From NCBI GenBank assembly GCA_045837725.1, contig JBEWZL010000251.1, positions 1 to 64,000 of the forward strand: DNA of 64,000 nucleotides, in the 5' to 3' direction. A program made the translations under genes and the position numbers. Source of the stretch: Vermamoeba vermiformis. Taxonomy: Eukaryota. Shown here in pieces: positions 2,564-58,159 of this stretch. The notes under the pieces are model-generated. The model did no database searches. It was not told where the DNA came from and saw only the letters and a program-made list of their open reading frames with translations. Position 1 is the first letter of the stretch; each line of letters begins with the position of its first letter.

Positions 2564-5184
2564 TGTTACCGCCACTTACGACTTTATGACACATCGCACT
2601 AAATGGCGAAATCACTTCCGCTCTTTATGACACATGTTACCGCCGAAATTCAAATTTCAGTTTGGTGCGATGTGAGCCACTACAATGATAAATCAAATTA
2701 TGAGTATATTAAAACAATTACTTTTCAAGCAATGGACGATTGGCAGTATTCTGTGTACTGCAAGATCCTTGCCGGGGATCAATCTCCCTTCAGCGAAGCT
2801 GATGTTCCTCCATTGACCAGACACCAACGAAGTGCTCACAGACGACTTGCAAAGGCCAATTATTGCCTTATTGAAGGGAAGCTTTATCAGCGAGTTAAGT
2901 TTACGGAGATCGCGCAGCTTCCGCTCAGACCAACAGACCAGATGAGTGCAGAACCCAAGGTTGGTATTGACTTTGTTTTGCAAAAAGTCAAAACCCCTGT
3001 TTGGGTCCCTGTAGTTCGGTAAGCTGAAAAAGGGCGCAGATCGGAAAATCGCTGATTATTTATGAAACAGAGCATCAGAAAGACATTCGTGGCTTCAGAA
3101 AGCTCACGATGAAAACGCACACCAAGGAAGAGATGCAACGTTGAAATTCTTGCAGAAAACCGTTCATTGGCATGGAATGAAATCGGATGTGAGCAATCAC
3201 ATCCGGCTCTGTGACCTCTGCCAGCGAACAAGGACCGACTATACAGTAGCTCCATTGGAACACATTATTCCTGAGTAAGTAGAATAAACGGCAAAATATT
3301 TAATTTTAATTAATTTTTTTGGATTAGAAAGCCATTTGTTCGCTGGCAAATCGACTTGACTACTGTTGCAGGTCACACAGGTGTTCTCTTAATTGTTATT
3401 GATTGCTTCACAAAGCACGTCTGGTTCAAATGGCTGCCCTCAAAAGAAGCGATCGGCGTAACCAGCTTCTTGCTCTCAATTTTTAAAAAAGAAGGCCAAC
3501 GCCCAAAGATAATCCAATCTGATAATGGCGGTGAATTTATCTCGGATGTAATGAACCAGATCGCAGCAGAATTTAATATCGAGATAATCCATGGTAGACC
3601 GTATCACCCTCAATCACAAGGTTAGTATTAACTATTAACATACAATTTATTAATATTACACTGAAGGAAATGTTGAGCGTGTAAACAAGACAATCAAGGC
3701 GATGCTCTACAAGCTGATCCGTTCCGCAAAACAACAAAATCGTCCCTACTCTATTATGCAATTGACCGAACAAGTCGTTGATATTTACAACAACTCTTCA
3801 CACTCGTCTACAGGCTTTACCCCATTGGAATTGCAACGTCCCATACTAACCAGCCCAGTGCAAGCTAGCACACCACGAGAGATCTTAGCAGAGCAGAGAC
3901 TTCAACTTGCAGGGCTATTTGCACGTGCTCATGAACAACTCCAACGTGCAGCCAAAAAAGCAGATCGTGTTCATAATAAGAAGTATGCCACAAAGCTTCG
4001 TATTTTCAAGGTTGGGGATCGTGTTTTGTACAAAATTCCAAAACAACTGAGGAAGAAAGGCCAACCTGGTTACGATTGCGAAGCAGAGGTGACTGCAGTG
4101 CATCGCAACTCACGCTACTCTTTGAAGTTTATCACAAACAGTCCTCCAAACGCAAACCGAACATTTCATGCGAACGAATTTAAATTATACTACGGTAATT
4201 GAATTTTATTTATGTGTCATATGCTTACTAATATTACACTAGAGCCAGAAAAGCCCTCCGACACTGATCCTGAAGTTCCCACGCAAGGTAAAAAATTATT
4301 TCAAATTTTAATTAATAATCTGCCCACACAGTGGCACGCCAAGGTGGAGATCTGGAAAAAGCTGATTCTGCTGAACCAAAATCCCTGCAAGATGAAGATT
4401 CAGACCGTAAGTCATTAATTATTACGGCCAACATTTTGGGCTAAATTTTGTCCCAGTGTTCGAGGTTAATTTTGATATGGTGGCTGGCCCGAACAATAAT
4501 GACCTCGAGCATGATCACGAGCACGAGCACGAGCACGAGAAAGAAGTCAGCAATGATTTTGATCAATACTCAATTGACGTGTCAGATGAAGATGTCCCGT
4601 CGTACCTTGATGAGCAACTGGAAAATATAATTGACCTTTCTGAAGAGTCGTTGGACTGTGGAAATAATACCAATGTAATAACTGAGCGTACCCCCGAGAC
4701 AGATTCCGTTTCAGAAACGGGTAAATAATTTTCTGTGATCACAGAAATATTTATTAATATTATTTTAGATTATCAGGCTTACCAACCACGTCCACGACAA
4801 CAAATTCTTCGTGAACCTGGTATATCCGAATGCCGGTTTTTCCGGGAGCTTGGATCACCACCAAAAAAATAATCCGCTTCATCTTGTCAGATGTTAATTA
4901 ACAAAAACCGACCAAACACAAACTCACGTTCTGCAATAAACTAAAGTTATCCATATAATTTTGTTCTACTGTGTTTATCACCCGTAAGACGAGCTATGCT
5001 GGATTGGCACGAGATCGCGCTTTCAAAAAATCCGATCTCACCAACACAACTTCAGAAAAAAAAAATTCTTGTTGCATATTAATAGGTATGTTTGATTGTT
5101 CACTCCTTAATGAAGAGTTCAAACTGACTAAAAATTTTTAGCCGTTTGGTGCTACGTGTCGTAAAGTCGTAAGTGGCGGTAACA
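2564..5184 (+). mobile_element. Ginger-superfamily (Ginger2/Tdd-like) DNA transposon, apparently intact, 2621 bp
   Basis: 48-bp TIRs at 2564-2611 and 5137-5184 start TGT and end ACA; the outer 23 bp are identical (TGTTACCGCCACTTACGACTTTA), with 6 mismatches overall. 4-bp TSD AAAC at 2560-2563 and 5185-5188. Encodes a retroviral-type integrase and no RT, gag or LTR. Confidence 0.92.
2732..4872 (+). CDS. Integrase-like transposase (HHCC zinc finger + rve DDE core + acidic tail), 8 exons
   Basis: Hand-spliced frame is open throughout: AHDENAHQG..CDLC (HHCC), WQIDL, IQSDNGGEF, RPYHPQSQGNVER (D,D,E), FKVGDRVLYK C-terminal domain, then an acidic HEHEHE-containing tail ending ..GSPPKK*. Seven GT-AG introns at ~3020, 3275, 3621, 4195, 4288, 4407 and 4721. 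Confidence 0.9.
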
Positions 5185-5431
5185 AAACACGAGCACTAAG
5201 CTCGATCCGAATCTTGCAAGATTTTATTAAAAAAATTAAAAATTCAATTTCACATATAATATTAATTAAAATGGTACCACTAATATATTTAAAAACTTAC
5301 CTTTAATAATCTCGGTCTGTGCACCGAGATCCGCGCAAGTCTTGATCTCGCGCATTGCCTCGCGCTGTAACGACGCTGAATGTCGTTTGGAGCGTGTGTA
5401 TTAATTATAAATAAGCTATCTAAATCAACAA

Positions 5432-5891
5432 ATCGACCCTTGTGGCCGATCTGTTGCGAATCCGAGATTGTCATTATTCGAAATAACTCGCGCTGAACGG
5501 CCGTGTTGACCGTGGTGCGGCACTGTCTGCTGTAATTAATCATTAAATAATAAATACATCGACCCTTGTGGTCGATCTGTTGAATTGTTTATGCGAAATA
5601 GCCCGTGAGCCATTTTCGCATCAGTTCTGATCCAAAATAACTCGCGCTGGAACGGCTCTGGTGCCGCGGCGCGTTACTATAGGCTGTAAATAAACTAATT
5701 GTACGACAATAACTAAATAAATCGACCCTTATGGTCGATCTGTCAAGGTTTAATAAAAATAGCGTTCCAGATGACGCGTGCGAATTCAGCGTATTGAAAT
5801 AACTCGCGCTGAAACGACGTTGGAGTCGTGGCGCGTAACTGTCTGCTGTTGATCATCACTAATAATCAATAAATCGACCCTTGTGGTCGAT
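5432..5891. repeat. Four-copy ~150-bp degenerate tandem repeat, each unit headed by the hairpin ATCGACC-CTTGT-GGTCGAT
   Basis: Hairpins at 5432, 5558, 5721 and 5873 (spacing 126/163/152). A second conserved block AAATAACTCGCGCTG occurs at ~5481, ~5635 and ~5797. A 12-bp stem follows at 5913-5944. Confidence 0.85.
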
Positions 5892-6532
5892 CTCTCGCTG
5901 AACTATTTTTAGTGACAAGTTCGTGTCCGCTAACGGACTTGTCAGTGAGTAGGAATCGCTCCAACTTAATGTAATAATGCTTATTAATATTATTAACATT
6001 GTTTCATGAATTAATTTAAGAGAATTTCGGTGATCTCGCGGATTTAAATCCGTACGAACTTCAAGATCGGACTTAGAACCGCGAGGAAAAATAAACTATC
6101 GATAAATTACTGGTACTTACGGGTTATTTAGCCATTATTAGCCATTAATTTCTCCAAGGCTGACACAATCCGAGATGTCAGATCTGCGCGACGTTCTGTG
6201 ACCACCAACGTTTCCGAAAAAAAAACCAACCACTCCACGCATTGTTAATAGGCACCTACTAACGAAATTTATCAAAATTAAATCAATCAAAATTAATCAG
6301 TCAAAATTCGCGATCTTGGGCATGGTCGTGCCCACGCGGGATTATTGCGATAACTACCTTACCTTATCAAATTATATCGCGACCCTATATTCAATAGATA
6401 GATCTCTGTTTGATCTATCTGTTCCTGTCGTAAATTGTTCAAAAATCAATGTTCATGTTCTTTTTTGGCTATTTTGCTTCGATTTTTTGCCACGATTTTT
6501 TGGGCATGGTTTTCGCATCAATCCTGAGCGTT

Positions 6533-10642: not shown

Positions 10643-11062
10643 CCAAAGGCGGGAACTTTTTGTCGGTTGGATTTTTGGATGCGGATTTTTACTCCAAAGA
10701 CCGACTCTTCTCCCTATAATTAAATCTATTCTAGGCCCTGAAGCCTTTGACAGCCTCGGCTCAATTAATGAGATTTGAGTGAGAAAAATAACAATTTTGG
10801 ATTTTGAATCCTGAGGTCTTGCGTGCTCGGATAAAATTTTATCGACCAAGCCTACATAATTTTCCTTTCGTGTAATTTTATCAGTCATTACTTACGTAAA
10901 TCTTTCAAAAGTTGGTGCGTGGTTGTGCGTACTTGATTTTCGGCAAAAATAACGGTACAAAAAAAGCGGTAGGAAGTATTTATCAGGAGCTACGTGGAAC
11001 AACAAAGTTTTGCGAAACTTTTGTAAAATGTTTTGTCATCAGAATTTGCAAAACTTTAGTAT

Positions 11063-13566
11063 TTATTCGAACTTTTGTTTGGCAATAGAATAAACCAGCT
11101 TTTTTACGTATGATTTCGAGCATTTGTTTTGAAAGCACTCCTGCACTAAATGCGACAGCAAATCTTTTTGAGTTGCAGTGCGTAGATTGTGTTCTTTGCA
11201 ATATAATTGTAACAATTGCACGTCTTTGGGATCAATCTCCTTGGATTTGTTGTTCTGTGAAGAGAAGCCTTTGTCGCGCAAGTTTTCGTAGGAAAATACC
11301 TCCGTTGCAGTATCAATAATGAATACACGCATGGGTAGTTGCTCAAACTGCTCCGACAAGAAAAGCAGTTCAGAGTGCACTCGTTCAGTAGGAGACAAGT
11401 CCTTGCGAGCAACGCTGCACTACATTAGAAGAGATAATAGAGGAGTGCTGTCACCGTACCTTGCATTGTACAACAATTGACAGTGCATGATGATAATTAG
11501 ATTCAACTCAAATGAGATGTTTCCGCTTAGTTGCTGGGCCATTGTCGAAAGATAATGGTGCCAGGCTTCAAGCGGAGAAGTTCCTTGAGGAATCTCTTTC
11601 TTTAAAAGCGATGTAAGTATAAGTGAGCACTGCGTATTTGACCATTCTTACGTCAACTAATGATATGTTATGCAAGCTTGCTAGTGTCACTTCTTTGCAC
11701 AGGTTACCAACTGCATGCTTGACCGTTTCATCAACTATTCCGTCTCGAAAGTCTTGTTTTGTCTTGCGCCTATTATGTAATTAGCTTGGTCGTTGAAACA
11801 CCATTGATAAGCTTACTTTTGATCGCCGATAAGTAGAATCACTTCATTTGTGTTATATCTTGACAGTGGTGTTGGTTCCGCAAAGGTGGTTGACCAATTG
11901 CGCAAAGCATCAGCGAGCTGTGATGCATTCTCATAGGCCTTTGCCTTAATCTTCGCAAGAACTGCTGAAAGCTCTTTAACACTATACTTATAATCTACAT
12001 ATTGTTAGGATTTCGGAAATAATGGTGTGTTGCACGCACCTGGATGCGAACGAGGAAGCAACTTTACAACTCGCATCTTAGCATGATAGATATCCGTCAG
12101 TAATACTGGCTTAAATGTTGCTTGGGGGAAGCACTCTGCAAATGCTTCTAAAACAGCGGCACTATCTGATAATTGTCAGAAAAGCAGCCATAAATTCCTG
12201 AAACGTACCAACTATGACATTATCTGAGTATATAAACTTTGTTGTTGGCTCCTTGTGATGCTTCCATAATGTCGCATAAACTGCCGCGGCAATAGTGCGG
12301 TCATCTGATGGAACGATTCGGATCTGCAGAATTTTTCCGGATTCATTGCTGACAGAAAATAAGCTAGCCTTAATTTTTATCTGATTTATAATTAGTAATT
12401 GTGACGTCAAATTGCAGTCAACTTACCCGTGTTGATTCATTCTTTGAATGCGCAGACAAATTTTTCACAATTTTGTACGTGTGATCTCCTCGTAATACGA
12501 CTCCACTGGTTGTGTTCAGATGTTCTTGTTGTCTTGAGTACTCCTGAGACTTCACTGAATGCCAATAAGACATGTATATGTTCTTAATAGTTTGCGTTGA
12601 GATTTCGGTGCTCCGTTCTTGCAAACTGCTGTTCGAAATCCATTGCAATACCAATATCTTCTTTGCACGTGCGAAATTGAAGCCCACTAGTGGCATTGTG
12701 TTGTAGATATAGCAAGCTAATCGAGTAGTGTACAGTAGACGAGTGCCGACAAACAAAGACATGCTCGGACAGTACGTAGGAGGAAGGCATTGCACAATTT
12801 CTGTACTTAGTGCACTGAAGCTTGAGTTGTGAGTGTTGCAACGGTACCGTTGAATCACCAAGGAGTAGATCCCTGAGAGGTCAAACATGACGCGACGTAC
12901 AAATCCATCTTTCACTACGTTGCACTAAACAAATCATGCTATAGAAAGCAATATTAAAGTATTACCATATGTACGTTTAACTTTGCCGGGCATTGTCTCA
13001 ATTTTGTTATTACGCGTCCTTTGCATTTCCAGTTGAACTTGTATTCCTTCAAGCCATTTAAGGAAATTTCTGGTTGAACATTAATTAACAATTGTGCGGA
13101 GAGTGAAACTGTACCTTCTTCTGAACTCCAGGATTCGTCGTCCGAACTTTCCTCATCGGTAGAATCACTTTCAGAATCGTCCAATTGAGGGAGAGCTGCC
13201 GCAATGTCGTTTAAATTGAAAGACCCTAGTATTGTTAGTCTCTTATTGTCTACCATAATGACACATACCTTGCAGATCAATCTGATCGGTGGCAGTTGGC
13301 AGCTCGCACTTTACTACTGTGGTTGCACGTCGCTCTTTTTTCTTCCAGCCACTCTCTCGTACAGTTACTGTCTACTGTTAGACTTGATTTGACAGAGAAA
13401 ACGTACTTCCGAGATGTACTTCTTTGATGTGCCGCTCAACATTTCCTTTATACTCGGAAGAATAGCGGCACACGATGCAAGAGTGCTTGGTGAATCCATT
13501 TGTTTTAGATGACTGATACAATGATTTGACCCTGACGGCCAGCTCTTCTTCTGTTGTGTGCTCCAT
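11063..13566 (-). CDS. DDE transposase (C2H2 finger + Cys/His domain + RNase H-like core with DxxH), DUF6729-like family by recollection
   Basis: Spliced product contains CIVC..HIKEVH, RYRCNTH, LRGDHTYKIV (D), SVSNESGKI, FIYSDN (D), LLTDIYHAKMR (DxxH) and GTSPLEAWH (E). The gene lies inside the TIRs, and no stop was found in the exons I translated. Confidence 0.8.
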
Positions 13567-13612
13567 CGCGTGTCACAAATAACTTTTATTTACAACGTAA
13601 ACAGATCAACAC

Positions 13613-15263
13613 ATGTCAGGTAAAAATAAAATAGCTGGCACACTAGTGCTAATTTAAATTAGGAAAAAAGAGGGGACGCGTATCACAGGAAGACATCAAC
13701 GTCGCAGTCAAAAGTACGGATCGTGTGTCTTTTTTTTCGCCTACTAATTTTTATTTGCCCCAGAAAAACTCAAAGTTGACAAAAATGGTACGGCCAATAT
13801 CTCTGAAGGGTTAAGAGTAATTTTAAATAATTAGACGAGGAGAAACAGACTCAACCAAAAGCGAAATCTGCAGCAACAAAAAGTGCGTAGCTTATTTACC
13901 GCTATTCCTAACTCACATTAGGTTCTAAAGAGAAGGAGAACGAAAAGAGTGCCAAAGAACCGCAGTCTGGTAAGTGGAAAAGTTCGGCGAATCTTTTGAC
14001 AAAAGTCAGTGTAGTTTTCACTCGTTCGCACAATCTTTTGACAAAACTTTGGTAATTTTTCTTTTAGGTCACAATACTCGTCAAGCCAGTGCTGCGAACA
14101 ATAAGAATAATAACGATGATATTACCAGTAACACAAATGAAATTACAGCATCTGAATTGCCTGTTAAAAAGGATCCTGCAACAGATCTCGTGCCTATAAA
14201 AGAAGGCGACGTAATCTCATTATTTGGTGAAAATAATAGTAAGAATATTATTTTAGAATATTGTGCTATTACTAAAATAATTTTAGAGCCGTGGTTTGGG
14301 ATCGTGCGCAAACTTGAGGGAGATCAGATGCGCGTCACCTTCTTAGAGGTAGATAAATGCTGAGTAAATTCACTAATAATAATATACTAATAAGTATTTA
14401 ATTAGCCCAAAAATGGCCGACGGGTAGTTTTTTCTCAAGGAGCAACAGAGGATGTACCTCACGCCGCGCTAATTTGCCCTGTTAGCGCCAAATTCGTCAA
14501 CGAAGAGGTCATTATCAAAGACTTAGAGCAAAAGCGAGCCCACAATACTTCGCAAAAGATTGGTATGTTGGATCATCTGTTTGCCGAATCTTGAATCTGA
14601 CTCTTCGTATAGATCAGCACATCGCAAACCCTGCCCTGGAAAATAGGCAGCGAATAGAGAATTGGGAATTTGCCGCGCAATACGTCAAGCAGCACTTTGA
14701 GGATTCAGGTACGCTTTACAGCTTTAATTAATTCGCTCATTATTTTATTCTAGAAACTCAACGAAAAGTGCTTAGCGCAATGGCAAAGGACATGGTAATT
14801 ATCTGTTTGCATCGAAATCTCGAGCGCTTTGGTTTTTACAACAAGCAGCACTGGGCAAAAACAAAAGACGGAAACGGAGCAACAATGTTTCCGTTTTTAC
14901 TTCTATTGCGGTTGGTAGCAATGTCTCTCGAACGAGGGAACTGGCAACGTGTCAATCAGGGTGGAATTATATGGCAAGCAACCATAACTATGGCGAATGT
15001 CAACTACCGTCAAGTTAATATATGTGGTACGTGCACCTTGTATTGTATCTATTTATTTATTTACGTACCTAGGAGGAATGTCAGGACCAACGTGGGAGGC
15101 AGCTTTAAAAGTTTTAGCGGATCTTGGATTTGTGGCACCAGTCGACGTGTTCAATGGGCCCCAAGTGACTATTACAATAACTCTTCCTCCTTTTAAGCCG
15201 TTCAATTCCGTGCCAGAAGTAGTTGACTTAACAACAGCCATGCTTGAAGAATTAAACGAATAA
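13613..15263 (+). CDS. Transposon accessory protein with a basic low-complexity N-terminus and a possible Tudor/SH3-like barrel
   Basis: About 11 exons splice in frame from ATG 13613 (MSGKKRGRVSQ..) through IKEGDVISLFGENKPWFGIVRKLEGDQMRVTFLE to ..AMLEELNE*. The domain guess rests on the pattern only. Confidence 0.7.
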
Positions 15264-15587
15264 ATTATTGTGCACGTAAATATTTGTTTTGTAATTGCTC
15301 GCAAATAAACGATAAACCTTATCGCAAATAAACGATAAACCTTTAATTCATTGACAAAACATTTTACAAAAGTTTAGCGGAACTTCGTTGTTCCACGTAG
15401 CTCCTGATAAATACTTCCTACCAAAAAAGCGCGCTACTGGCCATTGGTGGGTAAGCCAAAAAAGGAAACCCTTGTCTTGGGCAAACATATTGAATATAAA
15501 CACGACCATTAGAAGGTGGTTTATTTATGTAACGTATTTTAATGCATTAAACAGAATGCACTCAAAGAAAGCATCCAGATCCTTCGT

Positions 15588-16099
15588 TTACCATTCGTGC
15601 AATTTGTCTCCTCGGATTCTTCTGGCCAATTGCATATCCTTTGGCATTATAGTTACTCTCTTGGCATGGATGGCTACCAAATTGGAGAGCTCCAGCAGAG
15701 TGACGAGAAATTCCTCGGCCGATTCCTGCAAGGCGAGCATTGCATTTTTCTGGAAACGAAGATCCGTCTTAAAATCTTGGGTAATCTCTCTGACCAATCT
15801 GCAGAAAGGAGCAAAGGGCAACAGCAGGCTATAGGACTTTTGGTACTTTCGGATCTCGCGAAGAGCAACTAAAGGTAATTATTAAAAAAATTAATTCAAA
15901 ATATTAGCAAATAAATGATTATAATTAAGTATTAGTTATGCTAAATTATTTTCTTCAATATCTTACCAGTCCCGGGTCTAAATCTGTGCGGTTTTTTAGC
16001 GGATCCCTGCGGAATTTTACTGCGCTTCTTCGGCGCATTGTTCTTACGTGGAGCCTTGCCTCCCGTGCTTTTTCTTGCGTGTTGTTTCGTTCGTGCCAT
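15588..16099 (-). CDS. H3: Divergent histone H3 variant (2 exons, intron 15869-15966)
   Basis: [137 protein letters not shown]; unmistakable H3 tail and histone fold. Confidence 0.95.
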
Positions 16100-16152
16100 A
16101 TTATTACATGTATTAAACCGAGTTTTTGGTTAGTTTATTTTTTGACCAGATC

Positions 16153-17206
16153 ATGGAACACAAAATCAATTTTAGGTAAGCATTAATAGAACTTTATTTA
16201 TTAATAATAATATTTCAATATAATTATTAGACAAGTGGGCAACCCAGATTTATTCGATTATTTTTACCTGGATGCAGCCCGGCAAGAATTTTTGCTCACT
16301 ATCAACGGTGCTGCTAGAATCCTTGGCAAAACTAAGTTTGCATGGATGAAAGCAGCGAAGAAAGGTAATAAATTTAATTTTAAAATATTATTTATTTCTG
16401 ATCTGATCATTAACCAGATCCCGAGTACGCCAGCATTGTCGTGGAAAATGTTGCCATTGATTGGTTTGAGGGGGAAAGGGTTGACGGCAATGCTTTGCGT
16501 GCCAAGTGGATCAACTTGCAAGGGTTGAACAAACTCGTTCCCTTGTACATACGAAACAAAAACTTGAATGCCGTGTGCAGTGTGTTGACGTAAGTATTGT
16601 TATTCTTTATTTTAACTTATCCGCAATTTTTAGTGAGCAACTCTTCACCTTGGGACTTGAAAATGTTCTCCAAGTCCAAATAGACACCGAGAGCAATCGA
16701 GTAAAGGTAAGTCGTATCATGCATTAAATATCCATTTATTAACTTTTGTACAGTTTTCACTGGTTGACGACCTTTCCAAAGCCTATGCTCCCTATCAGAG
16801 GCCTCCTACTGAAGTTGAGCTGCTTCCAGATGGAGTGGAAGTGCTCAATTTGGTTGCCAAACGCATTGACGAGCTCACAGATAACTGGCTGGCTGAACAG
16901 TATCTAACAGCTGACGATAAGGCTTTGCTGGATAAAGCCCCTGATTTGCCTTTCGATGATAGGTGCCGTCAGCGGTTGCGCAATACCATTGCCAACCTCT
17001 TTGCCTCCTTCTCTGAGGAGGAACGAAGACTCAGAACCTTGCGAGCAAGCGACACTGAAGATGATGAAGAGGATGAGGAATCAGAAGAGGAAGAAGAAGA
17101 GGAGGACGATGACGAAGACTATGGTGCGAGCAATGACCATTCCAGCTCCTCGGTGGAGGAGAAGTCAAACGATGAGTCTTCTGTTGACTCTATGGATATT
17201 GATTAA
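16153..17206 (+). CDS. Protein with a BRO-N-like N-terminal domain and a long acidic C-terminal tail (5 exons)
   Basis: Splices in frame from MEHKINFRQVGNP. FLLTINGAARILG and AKWINLQGLNKLV resemble the two BRO-N signature blocks. Tail is DTEDDEEDEESEEEEEEEDDDED. Confidence 0.65.
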
Positions 17207-18621
17207 GTATGAAATATAAAGCATCTTTTCTTAATTTAGCTTACCGATTATCATCTTGGAAATGCAACGAACAGCTTGCTTTTGCGAATTGCCACCTGAA
17301 TAACGCTTTTCAACTTCCGCCACCGATCTTTGCTCATTGTGGGCAATCAATTTAAGATATGCTCTTGATATAATTAGTAATGGATATTGGTGAATAGAGA
17401 GTTACTTACCAGTTGTTATTCCACCAAATCCAACGATCCCGTATCTCGAATCGAAAACTTTTTTGCTTTTACGGCCTTAATTGATGTTTGCTATTAATAA
17501 AAGTAATTAAAATATTATAGGGATATATTTTAATATGTCTGCAACTTCAACAATTGCAGATTTGACCTGGATCAAAAAATTGATCAGGACCAAAAATTGA
17601 TAGAAAATCGATATTATTATTTTTTTAACGTGTAATATGTTATTTTTATGCTATTCTAATATAATTTATATGAAATTAATCATTAAAAGACTTACCAGTC
17701 GCAAAATCCAAAAAAAAAATTAAATCTGGCTTGCATTGGAAAAAAAGTTTTTCTAGTCTGCTGCTAGGTTATTTAATCTCGTGGTAAATTACACCCCACG
17801 AGATTTTGACCCTTTGTGCCCCTCTGTTGCGGCTGCATTGGATCCTGGGATAGAAATACTAACGGCCACAGGTGAAAATCCTCCCAAAAACCGCGAGGGA
17901 GGATTTTACTGGAACGCACTTTTCTCAGCTTGGCGGTTTCCAGTATTAAAAGTAATTACATAGCGATGATCAGCGACGTTTACTCTATAACGTCAATCGT
18001 TTTGAGGCCAATTGGTAAGTGTTTTTAATAAATTTTTATTCGGTTGCACAAATTCGTTTCTAAATCTGGCAACGCTGGATCAAAGATTAAAAACCTTCAA
18101 ATTTAACGCTTCTTTTCACTTCATTATATTATATTGACAGTAATTAATACTATTATGCTTCTCCCATCACTATTCATTGCCTACTAACATGTGGGCAATG
18201 AAGCAGATCCTGAATCCGAAAATTTTTGGCTTAATAATGACTCAGTACAGTTACTAATATGGTGAATATCTATTAAACAGACTGCTTTTTGCATCGGCAA
18301 CGTGATTATTCGTTTTTGCTCGGGTGTACGTACTTTGAACTTTCTCATCCCGAATCTGCAACCAAACTCGCTATCAAAAAATTGATAACACTTCAATATT
18401 TATTCCCATTGCACTTCTGATCATTATTTTGCATTCAGGCTAGTCTAAAACTTTTTTGCCCTGAATCCCAAGTCGTAACCACAGGTTTAAAACTCTAAAG
18501 TATCAAACAGATAGCTTTCGCTGAAAGCAATGTGATTAATCGATTATTTAACTTTGCTCAATAGGTCTACACGAGTTTCCAAAGCTTTTATTTTTTGTTT
18601 TTCCCAAAACGTAGCAACACA

Positions 18622-19381: not shown

Positions 19382-19735
19382 AGGGCATCCTCCAGAGATG
19401 ATACCTTATGTATTCACTGGCCCTTGTGGGGGAGGGTGTCCACCATGGAGGACGCCCTATGTACGTGTTTGTCTCAGCAGGGGAGGGCGTCCTCCATGGA
19501 GGACGCCCTATGTACTTATCCGTGCCGGTCTGAGTGGGGGAGGGCGTCCTCCATGGAGGACGCCCTATGTACGTGCCTGTCCGAGTCAGGGAGGGCGTCC
19601 TCCATGGAGGACGCCCTATGTACGTGCTTGTCTCAGCGGGGGAGGGCGTCCTCCATGGAGGACGCCCTATCTACTTACCCGTGCCGGTCTGAGTCGGGGA
19701 GGGCGTCCTCCATGGAGGACGCCCTATGTACGTGC
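19382..19735. repeat. Tandem array of 26-bp perfect palindromes AGGGCGTCCTCCATGGAGGACGCCCT, unit 51 or 57 bp
   Basis: Perfect copies at 19484, 19541, 19592, 19643 and 19700, a 2-mismatch copy at 19433 and a degenerate copy at 19382. Periods are 51,51,57,51,51,57. Confidence 0.95.
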
Positions 19736-53619: not shown

Positions 53620-56600
53620 TCATTGGTTCATTGCGGCAAGGCGTTGTACTACAGATGCCATTGATGGTCGAGTTGATGGTTCGTGTTGCCAACAGTCTTC
53701 GATCAGCTTTACGACGGCCGCACTAACCGACCCATCATCGTCAAACGGAAGTCGTTTGCCGGACTTGACGTGTGCTTCGATATCTGAGTCCCACTTGAAG
53801 TCATTGAACGGTGTTTGTTCGCACATCATCGACCACACGAGCACCGCAAAGCTGTAGACATCAGCACTCTTGTCGATGCGAGGACTTTTGCCCAGTGCCT
53901 CTGGAGCCATAAATGCAATTGTTCCAATGTTCTTTGTGATGGTCGTAGGGTCATCTGAGATAAACCGAGCTGTGCCAAAGTCGGTCAACTTAACGTGGAC
54001 AGGTGCTCTTGGCTCCAATGAGAACACGAGGATATTCTGCGGCTTGATGTCTCGGTGGATTATGCCGTTGGTGTGAAGGAACTGAAGGGCTTTAGCTGTC
54101 TCTAACAGCATCGTGATCTTCATCGCCGTTGATAGCCTTTGTTTTTGCATGACGCTGGCGATACTGCCGAGAGGAGCAAACTCGATCACAATGGCGAGAT
54201 TGTTTTTGACATTTGACGCGCCGATGAACTGCACGATATTCGGGTGTCTCAAGTCCTTCATTAAGGTTACTTCCCGTTCGAATTCGATCTTCATCTCGTC
54301 AGTCAGGTACTGCGAAAGTAGCTTCTTGACCGCTACTTCCTGGCCTCGATAAGTGCCAAGCGTTACGGAGCCAAATCTTTGAACAAATGTGTCAATCTCG
54401 AGGTCTTGAAATGAACGATTTTAACTTACCCTCCACCTCCTAGGTACTCTCCGTTCGATTCAATTTCGTCCAAATCGATCCACGTTGACATGCCGCTAGA
54501 CATTTTGAATTCTATTACTGAATAAATCTTGTCCCGTTCATTCACCACAATCAAGCAGATCTTGCACTTGGCAGTCAGGCGCATTGTAGTAGACACTGTC
54601 ACGTAAGTGACTCCACGTGGATCAAGTTCAACGCTCGCGGGCTCCACTTTGATCTCGTACTTCGGTGACTGAGGTGCGTAGATATCAATGTGAGTGCCAT
54701 CAATGAGGCGCTCTCTCATTCCTCCAACCTTGGATGATGACTTAGCGTCGCGAAGGCTGATCTCTATGATGCTTTGATTCCACACTCCAACTCTGACTGA
54801 CTCTTTGCCAAGTGAATTAAGAGCCGAGTAATCGATGATAAATGGCATTTTGTCGATCGGTTTGTACGTGAATCCGTCGCCTGGGCTCCACTCCCATGTT
54901 GTTGACTGGACGATGGGCACTGCGCCCTCGGGGTTTAACACCTCAGACTTGGCTTGAGTGAGCAAGTTTTCCAGTTCTAACTCGTGCTTTTGACTGGCAA
55001 TCATTCTGCGTCGCACCAAAAAGGCAACAATGATCAGTCCCATTAGACCAATTGCACCTCCAATCGACGTGAGAACAACTCCAAGGACTGTCCAACTTGA
55101 TACTGTCGTGAATCTGAATGGATGAGATTCCAACTTGCTACTGCCGCAAACAGCAACAACGTGGAATGACGCAGCCGTGATTAGAGGTGTGATAGTCACT
55201 CGAATACTGCTCGAATCAGTGCCCGATACATTCATTGGCCGTTCGTTCTTAAACCACTCGTGCTCTGTGCATTCTTCGTCTTTCAGCCTGACCGTTAAGG
55301 TTACTTCACTCGAACTAAGCCAGACGGATTGGGATGACGTGGGTCGTGGGCCATCAAACACCAAATCATGGTCGACAACACGGAGTTGATTGCAACTACG
55401 AGCTGAACCAGACGGGTTGTACGCAACTACGCAGAGCTCGTGAGCAGAGTTGCATGTGAACGATTCTCCAGCTAAAACCACCGATGGATCAGATGTGACG
55501 TGACTCTCGTTCTCCAGTGTCCAATTGAAACGCATTTGCTTTCCTGTAGCGCTAATCTCGACAGGTGCAAGTTCATGGCACATGATGATAGATCTTTCAA
55601 GGGGCGCAGTAATAACTGGAGGCCCGTAAACTTCCAGCTTGGCTTGCTGACCAATGCGTTGGCTGCACTGATCAAACAGCGAAATAGAGTAGGTGCCCAT
55701 CGACTCTTGCGTCACGTGATTGAGAGCCAAACTGAATGTTGTTTCGTTGGCCAAGCGTACATTGTCACGTTGCCAATAAGACGATACAACCTTTCCTTGG
55801 ACTGAAACATCAAAATTCACACTCTCGCCAATGAATAGCTGTGCGTCGTTCAATCCGTTCGTAATTGTTGTCAATTCCATCGCTTTCAAATTATCGGCGA
55901 ATGTTGAAGCCACGATGAAGTTCTCCGTCACGTAGAATTGATTATCGCCGCCACTGTTGTATGCAAAGCTGAAGCTCTCGCCGGTCGTCGTTTCATGAAC
56001 GCTAATCTGACGTTCGACATTTCTTCTGCTGTAAAAGACGACTTTGCTGCCGATCACTCTGACTGAGCGCGGCTCCGAATTAGGCACCAGCAGTGGCCTG
56101 TTAGTACTACTCTCGATATCAACAATATCGACTCGATTTTCTCGTGCAACAAAGATCAAGTTATCTCGTGCAGCCAATTCCACCATCGGGGGTGAATAAA
56201 ACGACAAATTCGGTGGCAGTATTGTTGACTTCCATGTCGCGGTTTTCACGTTATAAATGTCGACTCTGTTGCTGTCGTCGTTCTTTCCTGAACGCGCGTA
56301 TCCGCCGGCATATATGACGTAATCGCCGTGCACGAGCGCCTTCATTCTTATTCGTCCATTGAATGAAGTCTCCTCGACGCGGTACTGATTTGTTTCGACA
56401 TTGTAAACGTGCAGTTTTCGAAACTCGCTGCCCTCTCCAATGCCAGTAATGAGTATCGTAGGGTTTTGCACAGTAACGAATGCGTGAGTTAGAAGTGAGT
56501 CGAACTCTGGGCCAATACGCCATTTACGCGTGTTCATGTTGTAGATTTTCATAGTTGCCAAGTCTAACAGCACAATGTTGTCGTTGACAATGTGGACTGG

Positions 56601-58159
56601 CACGTATTGAATCGCTGGTAAAACTGTCCATTCGTTCGTGGCAACATCAAGAACAAATATATTGGTCGCATTACGCAGCACCACATAATCATCGCTCGAA
56701 GTCGCAACAGTTAGCCGGTCAGTAGTAGGAAGTGCATTGGTTGTCCAAGTCTCGGTGTCTACATTAAACACCAAGTATTGCTCTCTCGAACTGGCAGTGA
56801 ACACCAAAAGCTTTCGGCCTGCCTGAATTTGACCATCGGGGCTTACTGAAAATTGTTCCGGGTAATTGTATACGTTCTGTTGGTTCTTTCGTAGATTGTA
56901 ATAATAGATCACTTGACTTCGTCCAAGAAATCTAAAGACGTATCCAAATGCTGCGTGGATGTAACCAATTCCAATAACGTAATCTCTATCCACAACTGTG
57001 CTCAGTAATGCTCGCGTGTCGAATTGCGCGACGCTCTCGGGAAACTGGTGACCACTTGCTCCGCTGCAGTAAATTATTCCATTCTCTTCCACTGATTGCC
57101 CGCCGGATAAAAACAGAGTAGACGAGCGGAAGCGGACTAGCCGGGCATAAGGACGATAAACAGTGATGAATCCAGGGCCAATGAGATACAGCTCCTCGCC
57201 AATGAGATTGTATGCGGCGATATTTCGCTCTGAAAATGTCGATTCGTATAGCGGTCTGTTTGGATTGTCGATGCCAATATTGAGGAGAGTAGTGTAGCTT
57301 AACAGAGTTAAAGAATCTCCGAAATAGACAATGCCCAATACTGCAGAACTCCACGTGACTGTTCTAGGGGCACTCCAAGTCATATTACCAACGTTGAGAA
57401 TGTTGATAACGACGTTGTAATTCGATCTTCCTGCGAAAAACACTCGATCACCACCGAAGGTAGCAGCAGAAGGTGTTAATGGCAGCTCTAGAGTGTCCAT
57501 AGTGTTTGCGATAGGGTCTACGATGAATACAGTCGTACTCTTATCTGAGTATAAAAACACGCGAGATCCAGCAACAAGAGCATTAATACGCTCCGAGACT
57601 TGTCCAACGTCGAAGTCCATCGTTTGCATTGTCTGGGTATCTGCATCGTATACATCGATCTTGTCATAATAACTTGAGGCTCTACTGTTCAATTGGCCGC
57701 CAGCAAATAGAACTTTCGATCCGACTGAGGAAACTGCTATTCGGCCACGTCCTTCAGGCAATTTTAGAGTAGAAACCACTCCATTTACAGGGTCGAGAAT
57801 ATCTACATTAGTGGATCCAGTTCCGTTGGTTGCAAAAAAGCCACCAGCAAAAAAGATCTTTCCATCTCTTTTTCCCAACCCCATGTAATCTCGTGGAGTC
57901 GATAGTGAAAGTGGTTGATAACATCCTAAAAAATACCCGATTATTTATTGTCGTTATAATTGAATTTTTACAATAATAATCTAATTACCCGCAGCCACGA
58001 TCGGGATTAGGACCAACAAAATTGCCAAAACGATGTTCCAACCGATGTTCCGTCTTTAAAATGAAATATTAATTACATTAATTTACTCAGTAGCAATTCA
58101 GTGCAATTTAGCTGTGGTTGTCATATTGTTAAATTATGAGACTTGCAGTACCTGATCAT
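53620..58159 (-). CDS. Receptor-like TKL kinase (signal peptide, Kelch-like propellers, Ig-like domains, TM, kinase)
   Basis: LGGGGFGSV, VAVKK, HRDIKPQN, DFG, GTIAFMAPE, DVYSF; TM VLGVVLTSIGGAIGLMGLIIVAFLV; signal-like IVLAILLVLIPIVAA. Confidence 0.9.

Follow-up and report, generated by a model that had tools for sequence, protein, structure and literature searches.

What kind of histone gene lies at positions 15588–16099 on the minus strand of contig JBEWZL010000251.1 from Vermamoeba vermiformis, close to a DNA transposon, and does it belong to the host at all? To take a closer look we analysed the first 64,000 nucleotides (nt) of this contig (assembly GCA_045837725.1), below called the window, in which a first-pass annotation had noticed an unusual histone H3, called it island-borne and proposed that it evades K27-based silencing or acts as a decoy for readers of K4 and K9. 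The locus is a two-exon gene for a divergent histone H3 of 137 amino acids (Table 1). We favour the fairly probable reading of a host-native and transcribed gene with an intron, which encodes an H3 variant that is lineage-specific and nucleosomal, and not a histone of a mobile element or virus.

The membership in the H3 family is evident from both exons, which were analysed separately, exon 2 by searches and the 44-amino-acid tail exon by alignment. Exon 2 matches the Pfam family Histone (PF00125) with an expectation value (E) of 5.4e-33 and 114 bits against a cut-off of 26.4, and it matches the solved H3.3 and H3.2 chains with E 3e-36, gap-free over residues 1–89 of the exon; all 60 chains listed in this structure search are H3. 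An H3-type tail (ARTK...ARKS...GGKAPRK) and the H3 alpha block are both present. Translation, Pfam and the solved chains bear out the unusual H3 of the first-pass annotation, and so does the finer picture it had given of the protein: from translation and MAFFT alignment residues 1–18 of the tail are canonical save T6H, the segment after K18 is shorter by two amino acids and has no ARKS motif at K27/S28 (15 residues from K18 to KKPHR compared with 17 in canonical H3), and both the altered start of alpha1 and the sequence GDKLHEW at the C-terminus are found in the translation.

The histone fold itself is divergent. Using exon 2 as query, 5.8 billion proteins were searched and 8000 candidates scored, the best 120 of these 8000 being listed; together with the matches of a two-protein profile search (see below) this led to a fold alignment of 181 H3 matches. 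The identity of exon 2 to ordinary H3s is 75–78%, with 78% as the top value among the matches listed. At 17 of the 93 fold positions the variant has a residue found in less than 5% of the 181 H3 matches, and these changes (canonical numbering) include T58Y, E59S, R63P, K64F, Q68C, A75T, S86K, V89M, A95S, A98E, G102T, F104L, D106L, T107S and C110V. Compared to H3s in general it is altered at 86, 87 and 89 as well as along alpha2 at 95, 98, 102, 104, 106, 107 and 110. The core of the fold is largely kept: when near-invariance is set at 95% or more of the 180 other H3 matches, 65 positions qualify and 59 of them are retained, including the DNA contacts of the loops L1 and L2 and the bundle residues H113/D123/L126/I130, and only T58, Q68, A95, F104, D106 and T107 are lost. 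Because these near-invariant residues are retained we argue that the variant can pair with H4 and enter nucleosomes. It would do so in place of bulk H3, with the residues for H4 pairing, for the H3–H3' four-helix bundle and for DNA binding in L1 and L2 nearly all kept.

The changes most likely to matter physically had been overlooked in the first-pass annotation, namely R63P and K64F at a DNA contact and the altered stretch from 86 to 110. A basic residue at position 64 is missing in none of the 181 H3 matches, and the loss of R63 and K64 together is likewise seen in none of them. The side chains of H3 R63 are located at the minor groove at superhelical location (SHL) 1.5 (PMC2978337). H3K64 opens alpha1 and faces the lateral surface next to the DNA, and its neutralisation by acetylation lowers histone–DNA affinity and nucleosome stability and eases eviction (PMC3965291). 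As both residues are replaced, a looser nucleosome is to be expected: with the exchange to Pro-Phe the arginine that enters the minor groove at SHL 1.5 would be gone along with the lysine of the lateral surface, so that the DNA would be held less tightly and the nucleosome be evicted more easily. K64F resembles H3K64 acetylation in the loss of a positive charge at position 64 beside the DNA (PMC3965291), but in the variant the change is hard-wired and accompanied by R63P, and its effect on stability is one that we infer. The altered positions 86, 87 and 89 and those in alpha2 belong to the region read by chaperones, making a separate deposition route plausible. It is residue 31 and residues 86–89 that usually set replacement H3s apart from replication-coupled ones (Talbert et al. 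2012, PMC3380720). The tail, in which the contexts of K4, K9, K14, K18 and K23 are kept, should still be able to carry marks at these five lysines and would lack the ARKS module of K27/S28, with T6H placed between the reader sites of K4 and K9.

Among known systems the lineage-specific and replacement H3 variants appear closest. H3 variants have originated frequently and independently and vary mainly in motifs for post-translational modification (PTM) and in the chaperone region 85–101, as stated by Postberg et al. 2010 (PMC2939574). Like the variants portrayed in PMC2939574 and PMC3380720, the protein studied here is full-length with conserved tail and fold and differs in PTM motifs and in the region 86–89 or 85–101; unlike them it loses T58, Q68, F104, D106 and the basic residues 63/64 and adds a C-terminal extension of 4–5 residues. 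It is also far more diverged than the members of the H3.3/H3.1 pair, as ~23 of its 93 fold residues differ from ordinary H3s. Within the Amoebozoa, Dictyostelium offers a family of several H3-like genes (H3a/b/c, H3v1 as CenH3, and H3v2), one of them small and intron-containing. By their description in PMC2995078, however, H3v1 has an unrelated N-terminus of 619 amino acids and H3v2, of 96 amino acids, did not enter the nucleus, whereas the variant is of full length with a canonical tail.

The variant is not alone. P0009, a predicted protein of 92 amino acids from an assembled public run, is the sole apparent true relative among the matches listed and shows 76% identity over the aligned fold (78% by BLASTP). 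Common to both proteins are an aromatic residue at 58, Pro63, Ala65, a small residue at 68, Lys86, Thr102 and hydrophobic residues at 104 and 106, and the C-terminus of P0009 (GD.L..-aromatic) forms an extension similar to that of the variant. It also keeps most of the near-invariant positions (57/65), and T58, Q68, F104 and D106 are lost in both, an overlap of four between six and eight losses among 65 positions (hypergeometric P = 0.0014). Rare residues of the variant are matched exactly by P0009 at 4/16 positions and by each other listed H3 match at no more than two. With a profile made from the two proteins P0009 scores 199 bits compared to ~155 for ordinary single-fold H3s; the other entries above ordinary H3s (160–229 bits) are proteins of 126–163 amino acids with 55–74% identity, and P0003, the one such longer protein inspected, carries a partial duplication of the fold. 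In a FastTree phylogeny of 109 distinct fold sequences (left from 182 after removal of duplicates and of rows exceeding 8 gaps) the variant and P0009 are sisters (support 0.71) on terminal branches of 0.167 and 0.182, about 14 times the median of 0.012. The derived positions common to both indicate that the variant is older than the split of at least two organisms. P0009 differs from the window variant in that Arg64 and Cys110 are retained and R69 is altered. Its first residue is the one at which exon 2 of the variant begins, which would be compatible with a common intron position. P0280, a protein of 144 amino acids labelled histone H3 by the Joint Genome Institute (JGI), is another divergent H3 with Pro63, Ala65, an altered Q68 and a C-terminal extension. 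It joins the two proteins in the FastTree phylogeny (support 0.90), a grouping that may reflect long-branch attraction or a wider variant clade.

The first-pass annotation had considered that the gene might be untranscribed, and a spliced transcript of it is present in run X4, which derives from a close strain under a different organism label and whose RNA type itself is only guessed in that label. One contig of this run (481 nt, depth 15.4) covers 15508–15868 and 15967–16081 and skips exactly the 98-nt intron with CT..AC joints on the plus strand, and in a second contig three GT..AG introns are removed from the plus-strand neighbour, followed by a spliced convergent minus-strand gene. As the neighbour is also spliced at GT..AG introns in the same run we regard X4 as cDNA-derived, and since the transcript contig matches the predicted junction exactly, the H3 gene is expressed. 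In a run search 20 rows from 9 studies contain part of this stretch, and X4 is the one among them that was mapped to 14500–17500. Three raw-read RNA runs (X22–X24) with the species label of the best-matching DNA run gave 0, 1 and 0 reads on 14500–17500 and have no informative value, the neighbour genes being equally uncovered. The H3 contig ends 12 nt past the AATAAA signal, and an Rfam scan of 15300–16300 with E up to 10 found no histone 3' stem-loop family. An intron, AATAAA and a missing stem-loop are features of replacement-H3-type genes and all of them are present here. With 98 nt the H3 intron is about twice as long as five nearby introns in the RNA contig (44–55 nt).

Table 1. Features at the H3 variant locus, in positions of the window (UTR, untranslated region; TIR, terminal inverted repeat).
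Feature	Position	Strand	Description
H3 exon 1	15967–16099	-	start codon and N-terminal tail; codons 1–44 plus base 1 of codon 45; donor G/GTAAGA
H3 intron	15869–15966	-	spliceosomal, 98 nt, GT..AG, phase 1, within the Val codon opening the alphaN region
H3 exon 2	15588–15868	-	histone fold alphaN–alpha3, C-terminal extension, TAA stop
H3 3' UTR	15508–15587	-	AATAAA at 15525–15520; RNA contig end at 15508
53-nt spacer	16100–16152		separates the H3 ATG from that of the neighbour (predicted); genes head-to-head
Orphan neighbour	16153–17206	+	exons 16153–16175 (predicted), 16231–16362, 16416–16589, 16634–16704, 16752–17206
TIR DNA transposon	10968–15422		4455 bp; 71-nt TIRs 10968–11038 and 15352–15422, 94% complementary

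Several observations weigh against the favoured reading. The long terminal branches suit a relaxed constraint as well as a new function, and R63P with a retained basic residue at 64 occurs in 5/181 other H3 matches, so that the double loss alone is peculiar. A poly(A) signal without a stem-loop does not discriminate between histone types in protists with polyadenylated bulk histone mRNAs. Between the X4 transcript and the window there are four differences, two in the 3' UTR and two in the coding sequence, and both coding differences are non-synonymous (S58N and V109A in the numbering of the variant itself) with no synonymous one beside them; 2/396 coding nt and 2/80 UTR nt differ (Fisher P = 0.13), so there is no strain-level evidence of purifying selection. 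In the neighbour gene both differences to X4 are also non-synonymous. Finally, the contig depth of 15.4 for H3 compared to 28.8 for the orphan neighbour is a poor measure of expression.

Some of these points would also suit an expressed but decaying or non-nucleosomal H3 paralogue that is under relaxed constraint and unused in chromatin, an explanation we consider unlikely but which survives best among the alternatives. The two non-synonymous and zero synonymous strain differences, the terminal branches of ~14 times the median and the loss of the normally invariant T58, Q68, F104 and D106 fit such a decay, and there is a precedent in the Amoebozoa with H3v2 of Dictyostelium: this H3-like gene is short, has an intron and gave a GFP fusion that failed to reach the nucleus (PMC2995078). 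On the other hand there is no damage to the reading frame, the splice sites or the poly(A) signal, residues 1–18 of the tail are nearly untouched, and most near-invariant positions are kept in the variant as well as in P0009. As the same four of them are changed in both proteins, this looks like a shifted constraint and not like random decay.

Alternatively, the gene could be the normal bulk H3 of a lineage with a diverged H3, with P0009 as the orthologous bulk H3 of a relative. No second H3 gene is seen in the 64-kb window, and P0009 shows that this form is conserved in a second organism. We nevertheless find this explanation quite unlikely, as for two genes of the window the best matches with a name are amoebozoan (Pelomyxa schiedti for H3 with 78%, Arcella and Physarum for a squalene synthase) and the fold sequence is ordinary in the sole amoebozoan H3 among the listed matches, P0024 of Pelomyxa schiedti. 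Moreover, R63 and K64 are not lost together in any of the 181 H3 matches, and the gene is a single intron-containing one standing head-to-head with an orphan and not with H4. Its contig depth below that of the orphan points in the same direction, if weakly.

We would put little weight, too, on the proposal of the first-pass annotation that chromatin with the variant escapes silencing by K27 methylation, or that the variant soaks up K4/K9 readers. It is true that ARKS at K27/S28, the setting in which PRC2 methylates K27, is gone while ARKS at K9 and ARTK at K4 are present. However, the segment is still lysine-rich (KKRSKIP) and a gapless count leads to a lysine at ordinal position 27, whereas MAFFT sets the two-residue gap after K23 instead, which makes the alignment of K27 ambiguous. 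We also tallied the tails of 97 full-length H3 matches, 95 of them with a recognisable fold anchor, in a sample biased towards matches to this query: the K27 region is without any xRK motif in 25/95, and ARK at K9 is kept in 20 of these 25. With K27 lost and K9 kept in 20/95 tails, a rewritten K27 region is not special but a frequent pattern in H3-family proteins, which agrees with the view of a repeated and independent origin of H3 variants in Postberg et al. 2010 (PMC2939574). T6H between K4 and K9 may itself disturb the readers. Furthermore, at least one amoebozoan, Dictyostelium, is without EZH orthologues, and H3K27me3 is detected there all the same, both according to bioRxiv 10.1101/2021.11.30.470311.

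That the histone belongs to a mobile element or to an integrated giant virus is very improbable, even if the surroundings invite the idea. The 4.45-kb TIR transposon ends only 166 nt past the H3 stop codon, or 86 nt from where the H3 transcript contig stops, and within 15 kb there are several repeat arrays and a second TIR pair. Directly outside the TIRs, though, there is a perfect 8-bp target-site duplication, AAAAAAGC, at 10960–10967 and 15423–15430, and as it abuts both TIR ends the H3 gene lies outside the transposon. No repeat pair found in the window brackets the gene. Its coding sequence has a GC content of 0.484 and a GC content at third codon positions (GC3) of 0.533, both inside the spans measured for eight coding stretches of the host (GC 0.465–0.504, GC3 0.478–0.660) and unlike three transposon open reading frames (ORFs) with GC 0.36–0.43. 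Stand-alone H3 genes of giant viruses have the same H3 fold, but the variant has a spliceosomal intron and a host-like composition. In 58 viral-contig loci from IMG/VR the H3 fold is 35–75% identical to the variant, in the best 80 of 565 confirmed metagenome loci the identity is at most 76%, and among these 138 listed loci none has more than 3/16 rare residues. The genes around it are ordinary spliced cellular genes. The label 'island-borne' thus has to be withdrawn, as the gene is placed beyond the target-site duplication, has host-like GC and GC3 and has no viral or metagenomic relative with its derived residues among the listed loci.

The variant is almost certainly not a centromeric H3 (CenH3) either. 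Q68 is lost (Q68C) and T107 is changed (T107S), residues whose absence serves as a flag for CenH3, and alpha2 is altered at ~10 positions while still being clearly H3-like. The tail, however, follows canonical H3 for 18 residues and can be aligned over its whole length, unlike CenH3 tails, which bear no relation to H3; the gap-free alignment to H3.3 leaves no insertion in loop 1, the fold is 75–78% identical to H3, and F84 is kept. An extended loop 1 is usual but not obligatory in CenH3 (PMC2995078).

The transposon itself looks intact. In Pfam its minus-strand ORFs give a single signal, a C2H2 zinc-finger match that is weak (E 1.7e-4) and does not reach the curated cut-off, and for its 168-amino-acid ORF there was no match in Pfam (E up to 1) and none in the PDB by sequence. 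An 8-bp duplication fits elements of the hAT, P or Zisupton type. The left 6 kb of the window are repeat-rich. At 2564–5184 a second pair of inverted repeats (48 nt, 88% complementary) has 2.5 kb of ORFs between its arms; the ORF at 3654–4199 has no match in Pfam at E up to 1 and may resemble the C-terminal part of retroviral-type integrases. The stretches 292–2444 and 5423–5898 hold a unit of ~1243 nt that occurs twice with 71–82% identity and, just outside this second TIR pair, an array of ~150–160-nt units. On the other side of the H3 gene, at 19413–19735, six units of 51/57 nt stand in tandem; the perfect 26-nt palindrome AGGGCGTCCTCCATGGAGGACGCCCT occurs in five of them and a version 92% complementary to it in the first, and two reading frames stay open through the array, probably an effect of the repeat.

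That no H4, H2A or H2B is nearby, as had been stated in the first-pass annotation, holds within the limits of our ORF and tblastn scans: among 140 stop-to-stop ORFs (at least 55 amino acids, 4.2–26.3 kb) the only Histone match is the H3 exon, although H2A or H2B exons below 55 amino acids could escape such a scan, among 34 large ORFs across the window there is none, and tblastn with the H4 of a metagenome locus and two ordinary H3s (E up to 10) found this gene alone in 64 kb. The surrounding genes are spliced and cellular and encode an ABC transporter, Kelch/BTB proteins, a TKL-type kinase, a squalene synthase and a Cu/Zn superoxide dismutase. For the squalene-synthase exon the top-scoring named matches are Arcella and Physarum (58–61%), vertebrates reaching up to 67% at lower score, and a metagenomic protein is 93% identical; in the Atlas only bacterial squalene-synthase clusters match. 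Together with the Pelomyxa schiedti H3 these named matches hint weakly at an amoebozoan host. At 53620–57944 on the minus strand a long single exon of 1172 amino acids encodes Kelch-repeat beta-propellers and a probable membrane span, and a Pkinase domain (8.6e-52) follows it, which makes this a receptor-kinase-like gene with a Kelch ectodomain.

The direct neighbour of the H3 gene is an orphan with five exons encoding a protein of ~285 amino acids with a long acidic C-terminal tail of Asp, Glu and Ser, its introns being 44–55 nt long. The X4 contig bears out the last four exons, with 16362 joined to 16416, 16589 to 16634 and 16704 to 16752; RNA support begins at 16237 and the 5' boundary at 16231 is predicted. 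The single exons have no Pfam match (E up to 1, sub-threshold hits only) and no Atlas match, and the last exon, searched against 1.84 billion representatives, found its own 99% identical ORF from another strain and four weak matches to long proteins. The X4 contig runs from this plus-strand gene into a minus-strand gene at 17189–17491 with CT..AC joints from 17189 to 17245 and from 17363 to 17410, and as the 3' ends of the two convergent genes overlap or abut there, the genome seems to be very compact. A distinctly speculative idea, to which we would give only a slim chance, is that the variant and its acidic-tailed neighbour form a co-regulated pair, a hard-wired 'loose' H3, lacking the hold of R63/K64 on the DNA and the K27/S28 module, with a private escort or chaperone, used in a certain life stage (e.g. 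encystment) or at particular loci. If true, the pair would represent a self-contained module of variant and chaperone outside of H3.3/HIRA, H3.3/DAXX and CenH3/HJURP.

In summary, our analysis corrects the idea of a histone gene riding on a mobile island. For now, the lineage-specific H3 variants, already numerous, gain one expressed member that has one relative, and because such variants are common the gene is a modest curiosity. If the inferred properties hold, however, it would be a natural experiment on an H3 that keeps the K4/K9 code but is without the R63/K64 clamp or the K27/S28 switch. It could then show how far nucleosome stability and silencing depend on R63/K64 and K27/S28 in a non-model eukaryote.

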